DNA of 49,124 bases from a phage, in sequence record PZ715802.1; one strand, written 5' to 3'. The position numbers were made by a program, and so were the translations under genes. Below the pieces are notes generated by a model that saw only the letters and a list, made by a program, of their open reading frames with translations, ran no database searches and was not told the DNA's origin. Positions 15,369-39,382 of the stretch are shown in pieces; position 1 is the stretch's first letter, and each line of letters begins with the position of its first letter.

Positions 15369-18278
15369 ATGGCTGAACAATTTGCAGGTTTAACACTTGG
15401 CGTTAACGTCGAGCAGTTAAACAAAGCTGTTAAGTCGTTACAGGACTTTAAAAAAGCCAACGACGAAGCAAAGAAAGGCGTTGAGAGCTTTGTTAACGAG
15501 GAAGAAGTTGCAAAGCAAAAGGCTAAACAGTTAGCCGATGAATTAGCGAAACAGAGCCGTGAATTTAAGAGAATTCAGGATACAGTTGATCCGACAGCGG
15601 CAAAAATGCGCAAGCTGTCACAGGCAGCAAGTGATCTTGATAAGCTATGGCAAAAAGGGATTGTACCTGATGAAACATTCTTCCAATTAGGGAGCATGTT
15701 GGAAACTCAGATCAGTAAATTGGAGCGCAACAAAAAGGCGCTTACGGAAGAAGGCCGCGCAGCGTTGGAAGAATCACGCACCAAAGAGAAAGCAGCGGCA
15801 GCAGGAAAGAGCTTCCTTGCGGATCTAGAATCACAAGCGGCTGCTCTTGGAAAAACCAAATCTGAATTACTGGAAATGAAAGCCGCGCAACTTGGCGTAA
15901 GTGCTCAGGCCGCGCCATTCATTGCACAGCTTAAAGCGCAAGAGCGCCAGATGAAATTAACCGGAATTAGCGCGGGGCAATATAACCAGGCAATGCGACA
16001 ACTTCCGGCTCAGATCACTGACGTTGTAACGTCGCTGGCTTCCGGCATGCCTGTTTGGTTGGTTGCAATCCAGCAGGGTGGGCAGATTAAAGATTCTTTC
16101 GGCGGCGTTGGTAATACGTTTAAAGTGCTGTTGTCGTTTCTTAATCCGGTAAACGTTGGCCTTGCCGCATTAGCCGTTTCAATGGGTGCTCTTGTTAAGG
16201 CTGGTTATGATGCGTATAAGTCGCAACGTGACTTGCAAGAGGCGTTAGTGATGACTGGTGGATATGCTGGCACAAACGGCGCACAGTTTGACAAGATGGC
16301 GCAGGATATTAATAACAGCACTGATGCGACCATTGGCAGCATTCGCGGCATTGCAACAGAGCTTGCAAAATCTGGAAAATACACCATTGATCAGATTAAA
16401 GCCATTACGAAAACTACCGCTCAGTGGTCAACTGTAACGGGTGAATCAAGCGATAAGATTACTGGTTACTTTGATAAGATTGCTGGCGATCCGGTTAAAG
16501 GTCTTGCAGAGCTAAACGAGCAATTCAACTTTTTAAGCGAAGGGCAGTTAACTTATATTGCAGACCTGGAGAAAACGAAAGGAAAAACGGAAGCAGTGAC
16601 GGCGGCGACAAAGTTATTTGCTGATGTTATGGATCAGAGATTAGCTAAACTGGCAGACTCCGCAACGCCATTAGAAAAGATGTGGACGAACATTAAAAAA
16701 TGGGCGTCAGATGCTTGGGGATGGGTTGGAGATCACACGCTGGCGGCGCTTAACCTGATTATCGACGTTGTAGCCGGAACGGTTGAGCAGGTCAGATACT
16801 TGCTTAATCAGGGTGATATTCTCATTGGTGAATTTATTGTGTCGGCAACTAAGACGATGCAAAAAATCCCAGGTCTTGATAATGTTGGCGATTCTGTAAT
16901 TTCGCAACAACAGAAGATCATTAATAACGCCAAAGAGAACAACAAGGAGCTATTAAAATCAATTGCAGAACGTAACGAGCGAGTCAAAAAAGGCGAGCAG
17001 GGTTACATTGACATGATGAAAAATCGTGCGGCGGTTGAACAGCAATATGCGACAAAAACAAAAGAGAATATCAGGAAGGAAGCCGAGGAATTAGCCAAAC
17101 GCGATAAAAAGCAAAAGGCTGAAAAAGTTAAGGTATCGGCTGGCGATAAGCTGGAAGAACAATATCAGCGTGATATCCTGGCGTTAGAAACTCAATTAAG
17201 AGTATTGAAAGAGCACAAGACGATCACAGATACCATAAGCCAGCAACGTAAATCTTTATGGGCTGAACAAGCTAAAATTCAGATTTTGCAAGAAGCCTCA
17301 ACAAAACGGCAACTTACTGATGAAGAAAAAAGCATTTTAGCCAACAAAGATAAGATCCTGGCGATGGCTGAACAAAAAGCTATTTTAGGAGATCAGATTG
17401 TTGCACAAACGCGCCTTAATCAGTTGCAAGATAGCTCAATCAAGTTTATCCAGCAGCAGAAAGCAGCAACAGAAGCACTAGCCAAAACCAGAGGGTTAAG
17501 TGAACGTGAAGCAGCAAGAGCGGCGGAACGTGCAAAGGTTGAGGCTGATTATCTTGCCAAAGGAGGTAAGGAAGGAGATCCGCAACTCACCGCCATGATG
17601 GATGAATTAGACAACCGCTATAAAGAGGAAGATGCTAAACGTGCTGATTGGTTATCTGGTGCAAAACATGCCTTTGCGGAGTACGGCGAAGAAGCAATGA
17701 ACATGTATGATAATATCGGCAACATTGCGAGCCAGGCGTTAAACGGCCTATCGCAACAAATGGCTGATTTCTTGACTACTGGACAAGCAAACTTCAAAGA
17801 CTTTGCAAAATCGATCATTAGCCTTATTGTTCAGATGATCACAAAGATGGTTATCTTCAATAGCATTTCCGGCATGATGGGCGGCTCAACCTGGACGCTT
17901 GGAAGCCTTTTAAGCGGTGCTGGTTTTGCTAGCGGCGGTTATACTGGCGACGGTGGCAAATATGATCCGGCTGGCGTTGTTCATAAGGGTGAGTTTGTTT
18001 TCACCAAAGAGGCAACGCAAAGAATCGGAGCTAAAAACCTGTATCGCATGATGCGAGGTTATGCAAACGGCGGTCAAGTAGGAAGCGTGACAACTGGCGG
18101 TGCTGGCATCAATCGCGGTGCATCGCAATTTGCATTTGGTGATATCAACGTTAACATTGACAACGGTCAAGATCCAAAAGGGATGGAAACTGGTATCAAG
18201 ATGATTTTCACTGAAATGATTCAACGGTCATGCTCGCAAGGTGGCGAGGTTTATAATTTTGTTCATGGGAGGGCTTAA
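15369..18278 (+). CDS. tail tape measure protein
   Basis: internal ATG of track ORF 15354-18278 with GAGGG RBS; about 970 aa, Ala/Gln/Lys-rich helical sequence; position after chaperone. Confidence 0.8.
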   Translation: MAEQFAGLTLGVNVEQLNKAVKSLQDFKKANDEAKKGVESFVNEEEVAKQKAKQLADELAKQSREFKRIQDTVDPTAAKMRKLSQAASDLDKLWQKGIVPDETFFQLGSMLETQISKLERNKKALTEEGRAALEESRTKEKAAAAGKSFLADLESQAAALGKTKSELLEMKAAQLGVSAQAAPFIAQLKAQERQMKLTGISAGQYNQAMRQLPAQITDVVTSLASGMPVWLVAIQQGGQIKDSFGGVGNTFKVLLSFLNPVNVGLAALAVSMGALVKAGYDAYKSQRDLQEALVMTGGYAGTNGAQFDKMAQDINNSTDATIGSIRGIATELAKSGKYTIDQIKAITKTTAQWSTVTGESSDKITGYFDKIAGDPVKGLAELNEQFNFLSEGQLTYIADLEKTKGKTEAVTAATKLFADVMDQRLAKLADSATPLEKMWTNIKKWASDAWGWVGDHTLAALNLIIDVVAGTVEQVRYLLNQGDILIGEFIVSATKTMQKIPGLDNVGDSVISQQQKIINNAKENNKELLKSIAERNERVKKGEQGYIDMMKNRAAVEQQYATKTKENIRKEAEELAKRDKKQKAEKVKVSAGDKLEEQYQRDILALETQLRVLKEHKTITDTISQQRKSLWAEQAKIQILQEASTKRQLTDEEKSILANKDKILAMAEQKAILGDQIVAQTRLNQLQDSSIKFIQQQKAATEALAKTRGLSEREAARAAERAKVEADYLAKGGKEGDPQLTAMMDELDNRYKEEDAKRADWLSGAKHAFAEYGEEAMNMYDNIGNIASQALNGLSQQMADFLTTGQANFKDFAKSIISLIVQMITKMVIFNSISGMMGGSTWTLGSLLSGAGFASGGYTGDGGKYDPAGVVHKGEFVFTKEATQRIGAKNLYRMMRGYANGGQVGSVTTGGAGINRGASQFAFGDINVNIDNGQDPKGMETGIKMIFTEMIQRSCSQGGEVYNFVHGRA

Positions 18279-36228: not shown

Positions 36229-37344
36229 ATGAGTGCAGCAAAAATTACTGACGAACAACTTATAGCAGAAAGGGCGGCAGGTTTAAAACTGCGTGAGATT
36301 GCGGAAAAATACGGAATGAGCTTGCGCCAGGTTGAGCACCGTCACAGCAAATTGGCTAAGCGTGGCGAAATCTCAACTATCGGATCACCTGGATTTGCTG
36401 TAATTGGTGAATCACAGCTTAAACGTGCAAATGGTGAGGTTGTAATGACCTGGACTAAAACGCACAAAGACAAAGCGCAATTAGATGCAATAATGCAAGC
36501 GGCTATGGCTGCATTTTCGGAAGAATTGCCACGAGTAGAACCGCAACCGGAAAAGATTGTTGACTATTCGAAAACTCTTGCGCTATATCCGATCTTTGAT
36601 ATTCACATTGGCGCAATGGCGCACAAGCATGAAAGCGGTGAGAATTACGACACGGCGACGGCAGAAAAGATCATGAATGAATTCTTTGATTATGCCGTCG
36701 ATAAAGCACCGAATAGCGAAAAGGCTGTATTGCTGATTGGTGGTGATATGATTCACAGTGACGGTCTGGAGGCTGTAACACCTGCAAGCGGTCACGTTTT
36801 GGATCAGGATTCGCGATATGCGAAACTTGTTTATGTTGCCATTCGAGCCACGCGCAGAGCAGTAAGCCGAATGCTGGAAAAACATAAAGAGGTTGAATTG
36901 CAGATCATTGAAGGTAATCACGACCAATCAGGAATGATCTGGCTACGTGCTGCAATGGCGGCGGCGTATGAGAATGAGCCACGCGTAAAGGTTGATGTTT
37001 CTCCGCGCGTCGTGCATCACACTCAATATGGTAAAACTTTCCTAGCTTATCATCATGGTCACACTGTACGCAAGCCAGAAACGCTTTTAATGATGTGTGC
37101 AGCGGATTGGCGGGAAGATTTCGGAAACTCCAATTCAATGTATGCGCATGTAGGGCATTGGCATCACCAGACTGTTACAGAAACGAGCCTTGGCATTGTT
37201 GAGGTGCATAACACTATGGCAGCAAAAGACGCTTACGCCGCGCGTGGTGGCTGGCGTTCACGTCGCAGGGCGGCGGTAATTATTTATGATAAGGAATATG
37301 GCGAAATAGGGCGGTTTATGTTTTACCCCGAAATGATTGCTTAA
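36229..37344 (+). CDS. metallophosphoesterase (calcineurin-like) with N-terminal HTH
   Basis: ORF track; AGAGGA RBS; N-terminal LKLREIAEKYGMSLRQV; phosphoesterase motifs DIHIG, GGDMIHSD, GNHD, HHGH. Confidence 0.6.
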   Translation: MSAAKITDEQLIAERAAGLKLREIAEKYGMSLRQVEHRHSKLAKRGEISTIGSPGFAVIGESQLKRANGEVVMTWTKTHKDKAQLDAIMQAAMAAFSEELPRVEPQPEKIVDYSKTLALYPIFDIHIGAMAHKHESGENYDTATAEKIMNEFFDYAVDKAPNSEKAVLLIGGDMIHSDGLEAVTPASGHVLDQDSRYAKLVYVAIRATRRAVSRMLEKHKEVELQIIEGNHDQSGMIWLRAAMAAAYENEPRVKVDVSPRVVHHTQYGKTFLAYHHGHTVRKPETLLMMCAADWREDFGNSNSMYAHVGHWHHQTVTETSLGIVEVHNTMAAKDAYAARGGWRSRRRAAVIIYDKEYGEIGRFMFYPEMIA

Positions 37345-37357
37345 TTAAATTATCAAG

Positions 37358-37392
37358 AAAAAGGCTGGCTAAGTGCTGGCCTTTTTTTGTTT
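37358..37392 (+). terminator. hairpin terminator candidate
   Basis: aaaaaggc...gccttttttt inverted repeat with 13-nt loop. Confidence 0.4.
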
Positions 37393-37455
37393 TTGTGGTT
37401 AACATATTCACACTAATTTTGGCATTGACATTTTAATTTAATTGAGGATCAGATT

Positions 37456-37680
37456 ATGAGAGACTTTCTTTTAATGGCGCAAAACTCTTTCGGAGGTGCA
37501 ACGGTAGTTGGATCTTTTACTGGTGAGTTTTTGCTTGCACTTGCTACGTTTATTTTGTTCGCTATTTTCGGCTGTTGGGGCGCATGGCTGAAATGGCGTG
37601 ATAGTAAAGCGATCCGAGAGGCTTTAGATTCAGGGGATTTAAAAACGGCGCTTAATCTACGGCAGAAAGAGAGGGTATAA
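37456..37680 (+). CDS. holin (by position and hydrophobicity)
   Basis: ORF track; GAGGA RBS; TM segment [21 protein letters not shown]; immediately upstream of endolysin. Confidence 0.55.
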
Positions 37681-38171
37681 TGACAATCAAGAAAGGTATA
37701 GCCGCCACCGTCACAGGGGCGGCTTTAATGTTGGCATCGCCTTTGATTGAAGAAATTGAAGGCGTAAAGTATAAGCCTTACAAGGATATTGCGGGGATCT
37801 GGACTGTATGCCACGGCATTACAGGAAAGGATGTGATTCTTGGAAAGGAATATACCAGGCGAGAATGTGACGCGCTATTAGCAAAGCATATGAAAGTAGC
37901 GGCTGACGCTGTTGATAAGGCGGTTAAGGTTGAAATTCCTTTATCAATGCGAGCGGCTCTATACTCATTCACTTTTAATGCTGGTACTGGCGCGTTTCGT
38001 AAGTCAACCATGCTGAAAAAGATCAACAATGGTGATCTATGGGGCGGTTGTGGTGAGCTATGGAACTGGACATATTACCGTAACCCTAAAACTGGTAAAA
38101 AGGAAAAATCAAGAGGATTGAAGAACCGCCGCGCCGTCGAATATAAATATTGCGTAAGGGATCTTAAATGA
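37680..38171 (+). CDS. SAR endolysin (T4-type lysozyme)
   Basis: start overlaps holin stop; N-terminal weakly hydrophobic [18 protein letters not shown]; E-x8-D-x5-T catalytic spacing. Confidence 0.8.
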
Positions 38172-38557
38172 AAAAGAAATTAATGGCTGTTTTGATGTGC
38201 GTTATGCTTTCCGGTTGTTCTGCGTCGAGCTTGTTACCTGGCCTGATTGGTAGCAAGCCCGATATAACAGCACAGGCAGGATCTGAAAATGTGAAACAAA
38301 CTGTTGGTGTAACTGCAAAGCATGATACATCAAGCAATCAGGAAACCACATTTAAAGAATCGGCTGTTGGAAAGGTTGACACGTCGAATAAAAAACAGGT
38401 GAGCACTTCAAGCATTAAGGCAGATAACATCACAGCGGAAAGAATAGAGATCCGAAACAATGATGGTCTTAATGTTCCGGCAATCGCAATGGGTATATTG
38501 ATGTTTATTGCTGGTATGCTGGCAGGGTGGGCACTTAAACGTAACAAGGCGGCATAA
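38168..38557 (+). CDS. unimolecular spanin
   Basis: ATGA overlap with endolysin; lipobox LSGC at N-terminus and C-terminal [21 protein letters not shown], the architecture described for T1 gp11. Confidence 0.75.
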
Positions 38558-38573
38558 GCCGCCTTTTCTTTTA
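38547..38573. terminator. hairpin terminator at junction of convergent blocks
   Basis: stem aaggcggc/gccgcctt followed by TTCTTTT. Confidence 0.5.
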
Positions 38574-38792
38574 AAAAATATTGTTCATTAAGTCTTGGAA
38601 ACTATTACCGCTATAATCCTTTTCCTCAATAATGTGAGCGCCTTTCTTTTTTATATCCCACAGCATTTTTTCATATTCGCAGCGGTTAATGCCAAACGTA
38701 CTACCATCATCAACATATGCGGTTCCTTTGTTGTTGAAAACGTCAAATGTAACATTAACAACGCGAATTGTTTTGATAGTGCATTTTAACAT
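38571..38792 (-). CDS. hypothetical protein
   Basis: ORF track; AAAGGA RBS; box element upstream. Confidence 0.45.
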   Translation of the reverse strand: MLKCTIKTIRVVNVTFDVFNNKGTAYVDDGSTFGINRCEYEKMLWDIKKKGAHIIEEKDYSGNSFQDLMNNIF

Positions 38793-38828: not shown

Positions 38829-38871
38829 AATATACCCGATACAAGATCGGGTGTTTTAACAAAAAGTGCTA
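38829..38871 (-). promoter_or_regulatory. composite box element (minus): TAGCActtttTGTTA, 22 nt, TATATT
   Basis: palindrome 38857-38871; spacer hairpin cccgat/atcggg. Confidence 0.55.
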
Positions 38872-39066
38872 TTCAAAGCGCCTGACGTGAATTAGTAGTT
38901 CACCGTCATCATTTGTTAACTGGTGCTCATTATCTTCAAACGCTCGCATATCACTGTAAAGCAACAACATTAGTGCATAGACAAAATCATCATGCGAAAT
39001 TTGCATTGCTGAACTTTCTTTCAAAATAAGATCTATCAAATGCTGGCTTGCTGAATAATTCTTCAT
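38869..39066 (-). CDS. hypothetical protein (overlaps 38990-39382; status uncertain)
   Basis: track ORF; stop codon coincides with TAG of the box, as for several other genes. Confidence 0.3.
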   Translation of the reverse strand: MKNYSASQHLIDLILKESSAMQISHDDFVYALMLLLYSDMRAFEDNEHQLTNDDGELLIHVRRFE

Positions 39067-39382
39067 CGCTCATTTTCTCAATGTTCATCATCTCCCACAC
39101 ATAACGATTGGAATCACCTTCCAGGCTATGCAACTCAAAATTAAACGGCCTTTTCATCTTGTTTTTGCACCAGTACACGCAATGAACGCCGTCAAGATAT
39201 CCATAACCCATCATTCGCGCTATAAACTCTTTGCTTGAGCTTGAAGCGAAATAGCGGGGCGTTACCCCCGCATTTTTGGCGAGCCTTTCACATTCACGGT
39301 GACGGAATATAAATCTTGCTAACTCTTGGCGGTTGAATTTCTCGCGAGACTCGCAAAAGCGATACAGATCTAATAAGAACAT
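38990..39382 (-). CDS. hypothetical protein
   Basis: ORF track; GGGG RBS. Confidence 0.45.
   Translation of the reverse strand: MFLLDLYRFCESREKFNRQELARFIFRHRECERLAKNAGVTPRYFASSSSKEFIARMMGYGYLDGVHCVYWCKNKMKRPFNFELHSLEGDSNRYVWEMMNIEKMSDEELFSKPAFDRSYFERKFSNANFA

Follow-up and report, generated by a model that had tools for sequence, protein, structure and literature searches.

The phage DNA of sequence record PZ715802.1 (49,124 nucleotides in all, hereafter the window) carries a lysis region at positions 37456–38557 that consists of three genes, all on the plus strand. This region is very probably a late lysis module, orthologous to genes 13-12-11 of T1 and working by the pathway of pinholin, signal-anchor-release (SAR) endolysin and unimolecular spanin (u-spanin). 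The genes and the features that bound them are as follows.

36229–37344: phosphoesterase/DNA-repair-exonuclease gene upstream of the module, closed by the hairpin at 37356–37388
37356–37388, plus strand: terminator-like hairpin with a T-run and a 14-pair stem; 5' boundary of the lysis module
37456–37680, plus strand: holin, 74 aa (open reading frame; T1 gp13 homologue)
37680–38171, plus strand: predicted class II (R21-type) SAR endolysin, GH24 muramidase, 163 aa (PF00959, PDB homologues)
38168–38557, plus strand: predicted unimolecular spanin of the T1 gp11 family, 129 aa (phrog_1804, lipobox, C-terminal transmembrane domain)
38546–38565, both strands: bidirectional intrinsic-terminator-like hairpin, AAGGCGGC-ATAA-GCCGCCTT; 3' boundary of the module

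Our calls of signals, SAR segments and transmembrane domains (TMDs) are drawn from hydropathy, motifs and homology, together with one AlphaFold2 model of the spanin whose confidence is low (mean pLDDT 59.6). What is said below on membrane topology, on the Sec export, tethering and release of the endolysin, on how the spanin is lipoylated, sorted and active, on pinholin action and on the fusion of membranes is inferred from the literature on homologues.

Gene layout and boundaries of the module

Adjacent genes of the module overlap: the holin and endolysin genes share one base in the sequence TAATG, and the endolysin and spanin genes overlap in ATGA. These overlaps fit translational coupling of the three genes. 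A Shine-Dalgarno-like motif lies 5–7 nt 5' of each of the three starts. The holin gene falls inside the stretch covered by the initial annotation, but went undescribed there.

The hairpin at 38546–38565 has an 8-pair stem with six GC pairs, was detected on both strands and overlaps the spanin stop codon; it is common to the spanin gene and to a convergent 73-aa open reading frame on the minus strand (38571–38792). A terminator is annotated in Stevie at the equivalent of 37356–37388, and terminators on both strands are annotated in Stevie and T1 at the equivalent of 38546–38565. A search of the plus strand from the upstream terminator to the start of the holin gene detected no sigma-70-like promoter; the hexamer TTGACA at 37425–37430 is a perfect −35-like sequence, but was rejected as a promoter because it has no usable −10 hexamer.

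T1, TLS and Stevie share with the present genome the order of phosphoesterase, holin, endolysin and spanin, followed by a convergent helicase block. T1 additionally carries two genes, for an HNH endonuclease and gp14, between the exonuclease and the holin. TLS and Stevie agree with the present genome in gene order, overlaps, flanking genes and terminators, and differ from it by point substitutions only, mostly in the signal peptide and periplasmic domain of the spanin, apart from an endolysin that here has 163 rather than 164 residues, being one residue shorter at its C-terminus.

The endolysin and the holin

The 163-aa product of the middle gene matches PF00959 Phage_lysozyme (1.1e-35) and phrog_7 (endolysin, 9e-53), and is 61% identical to T1 gp12, 95.7% to the TLS endolysin and 98.8% to that of Stevie. 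Its PDB homologues are 3HDE and 3HDF (phage 21 R) and 4ZPU (E. coli RrrD), with E-values from 5e-45 to 3e-42; 3HDE is phage 21 R in its inactive full-length form and 3HDF the same protein in its active form. Residues 3–159 align with phage 21 R, SAR segment included (3HDE, E 5e-45). The T4-lysozyme-type E-D-T triad named in the initial annotation is present as E27-x8-D36-x5-T42, is aligned with E35/D44/T50 of R21, and is invariant in eight aligned sequences.

A weakly hydrophobic N-terminal SAR segment had also been claimed, and hydropathy, the alignment with the SAR domain of R21 and conservation across the Drexlerviridae homologues examined all agree with it. The segment comprises approximately residues 6–23, the best 17-mer (7–23) having a KD mean of 1.84 and a G/A/S/T content of 53%, and it is flanked by K4 and K5 in front and by E24 and E25 behind. 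The first 30 residues contain no Cys and the triad has D36, unlike the P1 Lyz class. A SAR-like segment (KD 1.5–2.1, about 50% G/A/S/T, no Cys, K/R in front) was recognized in all seven Drexlerviridae sequences. Because the protein is homologous over its full length to the characterised SAR endolysin of phage 21, in an alignment that includes the SAR segment, its assignment as a class II (R21-type) SAR endolysin is supported at the level of sequence.

With R21 and RrrD the protein has in common the GH24 fold, the E-x8-D-x5-T triad, a Cys-free, Gly/Ala-rich SAR segment with basic residues in front of it, and about 50% identity over the full length. It lacks six residues (TGPSGN) that R21 has between its SAR segment and its catalytic Glu, carries a six-residue insertion (NPKTGK) near the C-terminus, and has one Gly in the SAR segment where R21 has a GGG run. 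The partner spanin of phage 21 is the two-component Rz/Rz1.

It is very improbable that the lysozyme is instead a canonical soluble cytoplasmic endolysin that passes through the large holes of a canonical holin, its N-terminal segment simply belonging to the globular fold. In soluble GH24 endolysins, among them T4 E and P22 gp19, the sequence begins directly at the catalytic helix, and the matches of the present protein to more distant lysozymes start only at query residue 20–25; the segment before this point can be aligned with the R21 SAR domain, which is established by experiment, and its K4/K5 and E24/E25 flanks are as in a type II signal anchor. The hydropathy of the segment is only moderate (1.84, against 2.29 for R21 and 2.24 for P1 Lyz), but its composition, and not its sequence, is kept across the Drexlerviridae at 45–76% identity. 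A 98%-identical protein in the Sazh GenBank record is annotated as a 'putative soluble endolysin', whereas the proteins of Stevie and TLS and T1 gp12 have been annotated as SAR endolysins by specialists. A single TMD, as annotated for the T1 holin, and the ability of u-spanins to work with either endolysin type (PMC6139136) would also suit a soluble enzyme; against this, lysis by 57_3Lys, a Drexlerviridae homologue, is reported to need Sec, being azide-sensitive (bioRxiv 10.64898/2026.09.09.750462). In our alignment the N-terminus of 57_3Lys is almost identical to that of phiA2-1.

Even less credible is an N-terminus that acts as a cleavable Sec signal peptide, leaving a free periplasmic enzyme, as with some Gram-positive phage endolysins, that would be controlled in some other way. 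The n-h-c layout does resemble a signal peptide, and the homologous N-terminus of 57_3Lys has reportedly been flagged as one by SignalP 6.0 (bioRxiv 10.64898/2026.09.09.750462). The homologous segment of R21, however, is uncleaved and part of the active fold, 3HDE and 3HDF being one protein in two states, and a muramidase free and active in the periplasm would cause lysis too early. Moreover, towards its end the hydrophobic stretch has a single small-x-small site, L-A-S at residues 18–20, which is followed by Pro21, and a Pro just after a cleavage site blocks signal peptidase I.

Even with a SAR endolysin of R21 type, the refolding mechanism of R21 may not transfer in detail, because the linker to the catalytic Glu is six residues shorter than in R21; T1 has the same E27/D36/T42 spacing and an equally shortened linker. 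Since this shorter linker leaves the catalytic Glu only four residues from the SAR segment, it is conceivable that the Drexlerviridae endolysin might be inactivated purely by membrane proximity, and not by refolding of the R21 type. That the pinholin and SAR endolysin of the Drexlerviridae form a pair differing mechanistically from the phage 21 paradigm seems to us unlikely. The short linker and the compact holin are not particular to PZ715802.1, and are common to hundreds of sequenced T1-like phages.

The 74-aa product of the first gene has phrog_2877 'holin' as its sole match (1.7e-35), and no family was matched in Pfam and NCBIfam. It is 55% identical to T1 gp13, 98.6% to the TLS holin and 100% to the 'pinholin' of Stevie. 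By hydropathy it has one clear TMD (residues 25–45, KD 2.25); residues 8–23 or so are rich in Gly, Ala, Ser and Thr and weakly hydrophobic, and are parted from the TMD by E24 alone (Gln in relatives), with no loop. The C-terminal tail is charged, with a net charge of +3. The T1 holin differs in having no second Met and in having Gln in place of Glu24, which results in a 42-residue uncharged stretch. Two TMDs are assigned to the holin in the TLS paper (PMC11447400) and a 'single transmembrane domain' in the T1 GenBank record; pinholins of the S21 68 type have two, of which the first is SAR-like and can leave the membrane. With its one clear TMD and no loop, the Drexlerviridae holin could conceivably be a pinholin that crosses the membrane once or is unusually compact. 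The holin gene lies directly upstream of the SAR endolysin gene, which is the genetic pairing seen for pinholins, and its product is probably a pinholin.

The second Met of the holin (M7) is confined to the Tlsvirus clade in our alignment, and the Tlsvirus holin may carry a clade-specific M1/M7 dual start. An sdi-like RNA structure was suggested for such a dual-start holin in the TLS paper (PMC11447400), but it is unsupported here, the fold of 37420–37500 having an energy of −9.9 kcal/mol with z = +1.1 relative to shuffled sequences.

The 129-aa candidate spanin

The initial annotation had reported a lipobox and a C-terminal transmembrane helix in one protein encoded by the third gene, and both are recognizable by motif and hydropathy. 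The predicted lipoprotein signal occupies residues 1–16 and ends in an LSGC lipobox with Cys17, followed by Ser18 at position +2; the C-terminal TMD comprises approximately residues 101–123 (KD 2.27) and is followed by the basic tail KRNKAA. Between Cys17 and the TMD lies a periplasmic domain of about 85 residues with no Cys at all. A single-sequence AlphaFold2 model has helices only at residues 3–15 and 103–126, the latter with a pLDDT of 79–90, and gives residues 16–102 no secondary structure, at a pLDDT of about 50. For gp11-type spanins, predictions give the periplasmic domain a short helix and at least four beta strands (PMC6139136).

The protein matches phrog_1804 (Rz-like spanin, 1.7e-50) and is 38% identical to T1 gp11 (E 3e-28), 89.9% to the TLS spanin and 90.7% to that of Stevie. 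Among 11 homologues, with identities down to 31%, L14, G16 and C17 are invariant, the +2 residue is always Ser or Ala and never Asp, and the C-terminal TMD, the basic tail and the lack of periplasmic Cys are found without exception, the TMD being kept in its hydrophobicity and not in its sequence. The absence of periplasmic Cys is the rule for u-spanins, unlike two-component spanins (PMC6139136). T1 gp11 itself complements a lambda Rz/Rz1 defect, and the list of its spanin family (Table 5) includes TLS and Stevie (PMC6139136). For clustering into a spanin family, a protein must share 40% identity or more with a member across no less than 40% of the length (Kongari et al. 2018); T1 gp11, at 38%, lies just under this level, and the present protein reaches it through TLS and Stevie.

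When all six frames of the window were scanned for lipoprotein signals, from every start codon, only two open reading frames were recovered, namely the 129-aa gene and one of 48 aa on the minus strand. The latter (16205–16351, LISC) was rejected, having no hydrophobic C-terminus and lying antisense in the structural-gene block. The 129-aa gene is thus the sole open reading frame in the window that combines a lipobox with a C-terminal TMD, which, like the conservation of these features in homologues, speaks against a chance occurrence. Two-component spanins consist of an i-spanin, with an N-terminal TMD and a coiled coil, and an o-spanin, a small lipoprotein, whose genes are embedded, overlapping or adjacent. 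No plus-strand open reading frame of at least 30 aa is embedded in the 129-aa gene or overlaps it; a two-component Rz/Rz1 pair was therefore rejected, the window containing neither such an embedded frame nor a second credible lipoprotein.

Because the protein is homologous to gp11 and phrog_1804, has a conserved lipobox and TMD, and is encoded last in the cassette of a window that offers no two-component candidate, the sequence evidence supports its assignment as a unimolecular spanin of the T1 gp11 family, the architecture that had been proposed for it initially. That the gene encodes a lipoprotein of another role, for example in Cor-like superinfection exclusion, can hardly be sustained: the weak matches to phrog_1119 Cor (3.5e-4) and a TraV lipoprotein (0.0039) are limited to the N-terminal signal and early region, for which reason a Cor-like or TraV-like identity was rejected, whereas phrog_1804 is matched over the full length, with a margin of 46 orders of magnitude in its favour, the homologous T1 gp11 acts in place of lambda Rz/Rz1, the gene always lies last in the holin–endolysin cassette of Drexlerviridae or beside the holin and endolysin genes in Autographiviridae, the C-terminal TMD present in all 11 homologues would be needless in a simple outer-membrane lipoprotein, and there is no other spanin candidate in the window.

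The predicted spanin resembles T1 gp11 in its LSGC lipobox with Ser at +2, in a C-terminal TMD that precedes a basic tail, and in a Cys-free periplasmic region of nearly the same length (85 residues here, 86 in T1). Homologous u-spanins of the gp11 family (31–44% identity) are found in Autographiviridae, namely in Drulisvirus (KP34-like) phages, LIMEzero and J8-65. Their C-terminal TMD is likewise followed by a basic tail, the periplasmic motif TAQxGxENxKQ is conserved in them, and their lipobox is L-T-G-C; those of LIMEzero and J8-65 are longer, with 102–129 periplasmic residues. In contrast to the present cassette, the spanin gene of these phages, which belong to another virus family, is upstream of the holin and endolysin genes, and not last.

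With lambda Rz/Rz1 the predicted spanin shares a role, disrupting the outer membrane in the final step of lysis, and the linking of the inner membrane with the outer membrane's inner leaflet. It differs in consisting of one polypeptide instead of two, lacks a coiled-coil i-spanin, an embedded gene and any periplasmic Cys, and is without detectable sequence similarity to Rz/Rz1.

Proposed lysis pathway and placement of the phage

The features described above suggest the following sequence of events. The three genes would be translated as a coupled unit through their TAATG and ATGA overlaps. The endolysin would be exported by Sec and tethered to the inner membrane by its SAR segment (approximately residues 6–23) in an N-in/C-out orientation; in this state it would be held inactive, because the catalytic Glu27 lies four residues from the membrane-embedded segment. 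The small holin would meanwhile build up in the inner membrane and, triggering at a programmed time, form small lesions through which the proton-motive force collapses. Depolarisation would free the SAR segment from the bilayer, whereupon the lysozyme could refold to its active form and degrade the peptidoglycan; this refolding step is modelled on the structures of the homologue R21.

The spanin would be processed at Cys17 by Lgt, LspA and Lnt, and the Ser at +2 would let the Lol system sort it to the outer membrane. Because its lipid end would then be in the outer membrane and its C-terminal helix would remain in the inner one, a single polypeptide would be threaded through the murein. Once the murein is gone, the spanin would be free to move or collapse and would disrupt the outer membrane, most probably by fusion of the inner and outer membranes. 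A beta-rich collapse that leads to membrane fusion is a candidate mechanism for u-spanins, to which the window adds nothing new.

By genome comparison, PZ715802.1 is a Tlsvirus genome (Drexlerviridae, Tempevirinae) of a siphophage, and not that of a Tunavirus. Megablast covers 91–98% of the window at 94–96.6% identity with phSE-5, U136B, phSE-2, Sazh and Stevie, the closest genomes being those of phSE-5 and U136B (approximately 96% identical to the window), and similarity to recognised Tlsvirus members over the whole genome is well above the genus threshold. The taxonomy given in the records of Stevie and TLS is Tlsvirus. The initial placement in a T1-like group thus holds at the level of the family, Drexlerviridae, but genome similarity and the taxonomy of the records give Tlsvirus of the Tempevirinae as the finer position, whereas T1 belongs to the subfamily Tunavirinae. 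The spanin had been offered as support for that placement. Since gp11-type spanins also occur beyond the Drexlerviridae, in podophages of the Autographiviridae, the phage cannot be placed by its spanin alone, and the placement rests on whole-genome similarity and synteny. Aligned with T1 gp11–gp13, as had been proposed, the three proteins are syntenic homologues of gp13, gp12 and gp11 (55, 61 and 38% identity, in that order).

The cassette is already known: it is covered by the spanin census of Kongari et al. (2018) and has been described for Stevie (2015) and TLS (2024), phages whose corresponding proteins are 90–100% identical. The same interpretation has been published for the cassette of Citrobacter phage Stevie, CPT_Stevie38-40 (PMC4319613), and for that of Escherichia phage TLS, in which gp67 is the holin, gp68 the SAR endolysin and gp69 the u-spanin (PMC11447400). 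In agreement with what was published for TLS (PMC11447400), the holin begins with M1RDFLLM7 and the spanin has an LSGC lipobox and its C-terminal TMD at residues 101–123. The value of the present analysis is mainly one of correct annotation of a textbook lysis route of pinholin, SAR endolysin and u-spanin, and some nearly identical GenBank records still label the spanin a 'hypothetical protein' or the endolysin 'soluble'. Homologues are present in 1171 records of an annotated phage collection.

Organization and boundaries of the lysis cassette

Three consecutive plus-strand ORFs, lying between two terminator-like hairpins, confirmed the lysis cassette that the initial annotation had placed at 37456–38557. 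That annotation described the endolysin and the spanin but left out the holin, which is encoded within the same interval.

Features of the cassette and its boundaries
37356–37388, terminator-like hairpin 3' of the upstream 371-aa phosphoesterase/exonuclease gene
37456–37680, plus strand, holin (74-aa ORF)
37680–38171, plus strand, endolysin (163-aa ORF)
38168–38557, plus strand, spanin (129-aa ORF)
38546–38565, both strands, bidirectional terminator-like hairpin overlapping the spanin stop codon

Because hairpins flank the three-ORF block on both sides, 37456–38557 delimits a complete three-gene module. The holin and endolysin ORFs overlap by one base (TAATG) and the endolysin and spanin ORFs by four (ATGA), and a purine-rich Shine-Dalgarno-like motif can be read 5' of all three starts. 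The plus-strand interval from the upstream terminator to the holin start (37389–37455) yielded no sigma-70-like promoter; a perfect TTGACA at 37425–37430 has no acceptable -10 hexamer at 16–18 nt and, if used, would place the transcription start at or inside the holin start codon. Immediately 3' of the spanin gene, small convergent ORFs of 73, 65 and 130 aa on the minus strand (38571–38792 and 38869–39382) use the same bidirectional terminator as the spanin, and are kept as 'hypothetical protein' in phages Stevie and TLS and in T1-like genomes, before a 526-aa helicase-like gene.

The endolysin and the holin

By homology, the 163-aa protein is well supported as an endolysin of the signal-anchor-release (SAR) type with an E-D-T triad, as initially annotated; its export and release are predicted. 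It matches Phage_lysozyme in Pfam (PF00959, 1.1e-35) and the PHROG endolysin profile phrog_7 (9e-53), and its best matches among solved structures are the phage 21 endolysin R21 (3HDE, inactive full-length form, E 5.4e-45; 3HDF, active form) and the Escherichia coli endolysin RrrD (4ZPU). The 3HDE and 4ZPU alignments span residues 3 to 159, and thus cover R21's N-terminal SAR domain. The catalytic motif E27-x8-D36-x5-T42 aligns with E35/D44/T50 of R21, and its three residues are invariant in an alignment of eight sequences (five Drexlerviridae lineages plus R21). The N-terminal segment comprises 17 residues (53% Gly/Ala/Ser/Thr, no Cys), with K4 and K5 before it and E24 and E25 after it; its Kyte-Doolittle (KD) mean is 1.84, compared with 2.29 (R21), 2.24 (P1 Lyz) and 1.68 (T1 endolysin gp12). 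Among Drexlerviridae homologues this segment varies in sequence while keeping its composition and hydropathy, as expected for a SAR segment. Lysis by the Drexlerviridae homologue 57_3Lys, whose N-terminus is almost the same as phiA2-1's in our alignment, is reported to be azide-sensitive (2026 preprint, bioRxiv 10.64898/2026.09.09.750462) and thus Sec-dependent.

The linker from the SAR segment to the catalytic Glu (residues 21–27) is six residues shorter in every Drexlerviridae endolysin examined than in R21, TGPSGN being absent, a difference that may bear on SAR-dependent activation. Relative to R21 and to the phiA2-1 and C119 lineages, the other Drexlerviridae endolysins examined carry a six-residue NPKTGK-type insertion near the C-terminus. 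The GenBank record of phage Sazh names its SAR endolysin 'putative soluble endolysin'.

The 74-aa protein matches the PHROG profile phrog_2877 'holin' (1.7e-35) and is 55% identical to the T1 holin gp13. It has one unambiguous transmembrane domain (TMD; residues 25–45, KD 2.25), and its C-terminal tail is charged (net +3). A weakly hydrophobic Gly/Ala/Ser/Thr-rich stretch (~8–23) adjoins this TMD with only Glu24 between, and in most relatives examined Gln replaces Glu24, resulting in an uncharged run of 42 residues. A single-TMD holin is annotated in the T1 record, and two-TMD pinholins are annotated in Stevie and TLS (PMC4319613, PMC11447400). The holin may have one or two TMDs; pinholin function is the more likely, because the holin is paired with a SAR endolysin. 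The holin begins M1-R-D-F-L-L-M7 (37456–37476), and the M1/M7 pair was noted in the TLS paper (PMC11447400). A dual-start antiholin arising from this pair is unsupported. Members of the Tlsvirus clade (the window, Stevie and TLS) are alone in having the second Met, which is replaced by Ala in T1, Samwise, SLUR29, phiA2-1 and C119; unlike those of the lambda S107 antiholin, the additional residues bring in R and D (net charge 0); and no RNA structure around the holin start folded better than shuffled controls.

The spanin and the predicted lysis pathway

The initial annotation of a single protein with both a lipobox and a C-terminal transmembrane helix was borne out by a basic n-region, a hydrophobic core and the lipobox LSGC (Cys17, Ser at +2) at the N-terminus, and by a hydrophobic stretch at ~101–123 (KD 2.27) followed by KRNKAA. 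The 85 residues between Cys17 and the C-terminal helix contain no Cys. A single-sequence AlphaFold2 model has helices only at 3–15 and 103–126 (pLDDT 79–90 for the latter) and leaves the periplasmic part undefined. A match to phrog_1804 'Rz-like spanin' spans the entire protein (1.7e-50), which is 38% identical (E 3e-28) to T1 gp11, the unimolecular spanin (u-spanin) that serves as prototype. T1 gp11, whose wild-type lipobox is LSGC, complements the lambda Rz/Rz1 defect, and the same census describes u-spanins as lacking periplasmic Cys and assigns TLS and Stevie to the gp11 family (Kongari et al. 2018, PMC6139136). In an alignment of 11 homologues from Drexlerviridae and Autographiviridae (31–91% identity), L14, G16 and C17 are invariant, the motif TAQxGxENxKQ is conserved, and all 11 have the C-terminal hydrophobic helix and basic tail, with periplasmic Cys in none. 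No ORF embedded in or overlapping the spanin gene was found, and a six-frame lipoprotein-signal scan of the whole window gave no other credible lipoprotein candidate; the predicted spanin is thus unimolecular, not two-component, in agreement with the initial annotation. Several Tlsvirus GenBank records (phSE-2, phSE-5, Supreme284, SorkZaugg and CF1) call this spanin 'hypothetical protein'.

The sequence features and homologies are the part of the lysis pathway seen directly in the window; we infer its topological and functional steps from T1 gp11, R21 and related work. The lysozyme would be exported by Sec, with the SAR segment keeping the inactive enzyme tethered to the inner membrane. Holin triggering would depolarise the membrane and the SAR segment would leave it, so that the lysozyme refolds, becomes active as in R21, and degrades the murein. 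The u-spanin, with acylated Cys17 in the outer membrane and its C-terminal helix anchored in the inner membrane, would be freed once the murein is gone and would disrupt the outer membrane, with membrane fusion as the probable means, as in the model of Kongari et al. 2018 (PMC6139136).

Relatives and taxonomic placement

The cassette as annotated is correct and already known: the 2024 TLS paper (PMC11447400) describes the same three genes, an identical lipobox and a TMD at 101–123, and its T1 identity figures are those obtained here. The holin, endolysin and spanin are 98.6, 95.7 and 89.9% identical to TLS gp67–69, and 100, 98.8 and 90.7% identical to Stevie gp38–40. With its immediate flanks (37300–38700), the cassette shares 99.1% identity with Escherichia phage U136B and Salmonella phage PCST1, and the two window halves show 94–96.6% identity over 91–98% of their length to Tlsvirus genomes, including phSE-5, U136B, phSE-2, Sazh and Stevie. 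The T1 genes gp11–gp13 align with the cassette and are syntenic; T1, TLS and Stevie all have the same gene order and neighbours (exonuclease 5'; convergent small ORFs and helicase 3').

The SAR-endolysin and u-spanin interpretation is therefore supported, with a minor taxonomic caveat. Genome similarity and synteny uphold the T1-like placement, but the spanin architecture cited for it is insufficient by itself, because Autographiviridae podophages (Drulisvirus PWKp2 and SFN6B, LIMEzero and J8-65) likewise have u-spanins of the gp11 family. From genome-wide similarity and synteny, the phage is a Tlsvirus (Tempevirinae), and does not belong to T1's own genus. Unlike the Drexlerviridae order, the u-spanin gene in Autographiviridae (Drulisvirus, Waewaevirus LIMEzero and Bonnellvirus J8-65) lies 5' of the holin and endolysin genes, directly after the large terminase region, which suggests that this gene moves from one phage family to another independently of its partner genes. 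The RefSeq record of Shigella phage SFN6B (NC_047929.1) leaves its gp11-family spanin ORF (1501–1890 of L006, the SFN6B locus compared) without a CDS.

Comparison of 37300–38700 and 337–25000 with public records also showed ~93–94% identity between this enterobacterial Tlsvirus-type genome and the record labelled 'Streptococcus phage MBBL140' (OR786094.1, host S. agalactiae), and about 21 'Campylobacter phage' records (e.g. MG065680.1, A113) carry Drexlerviridae-type sequence including a gp11-type spanin. A spanin that joins the inner membrane to the outer one would be meaningless in a Gram-positive host, so these host labels appear to reflect contamination or mislabelling.
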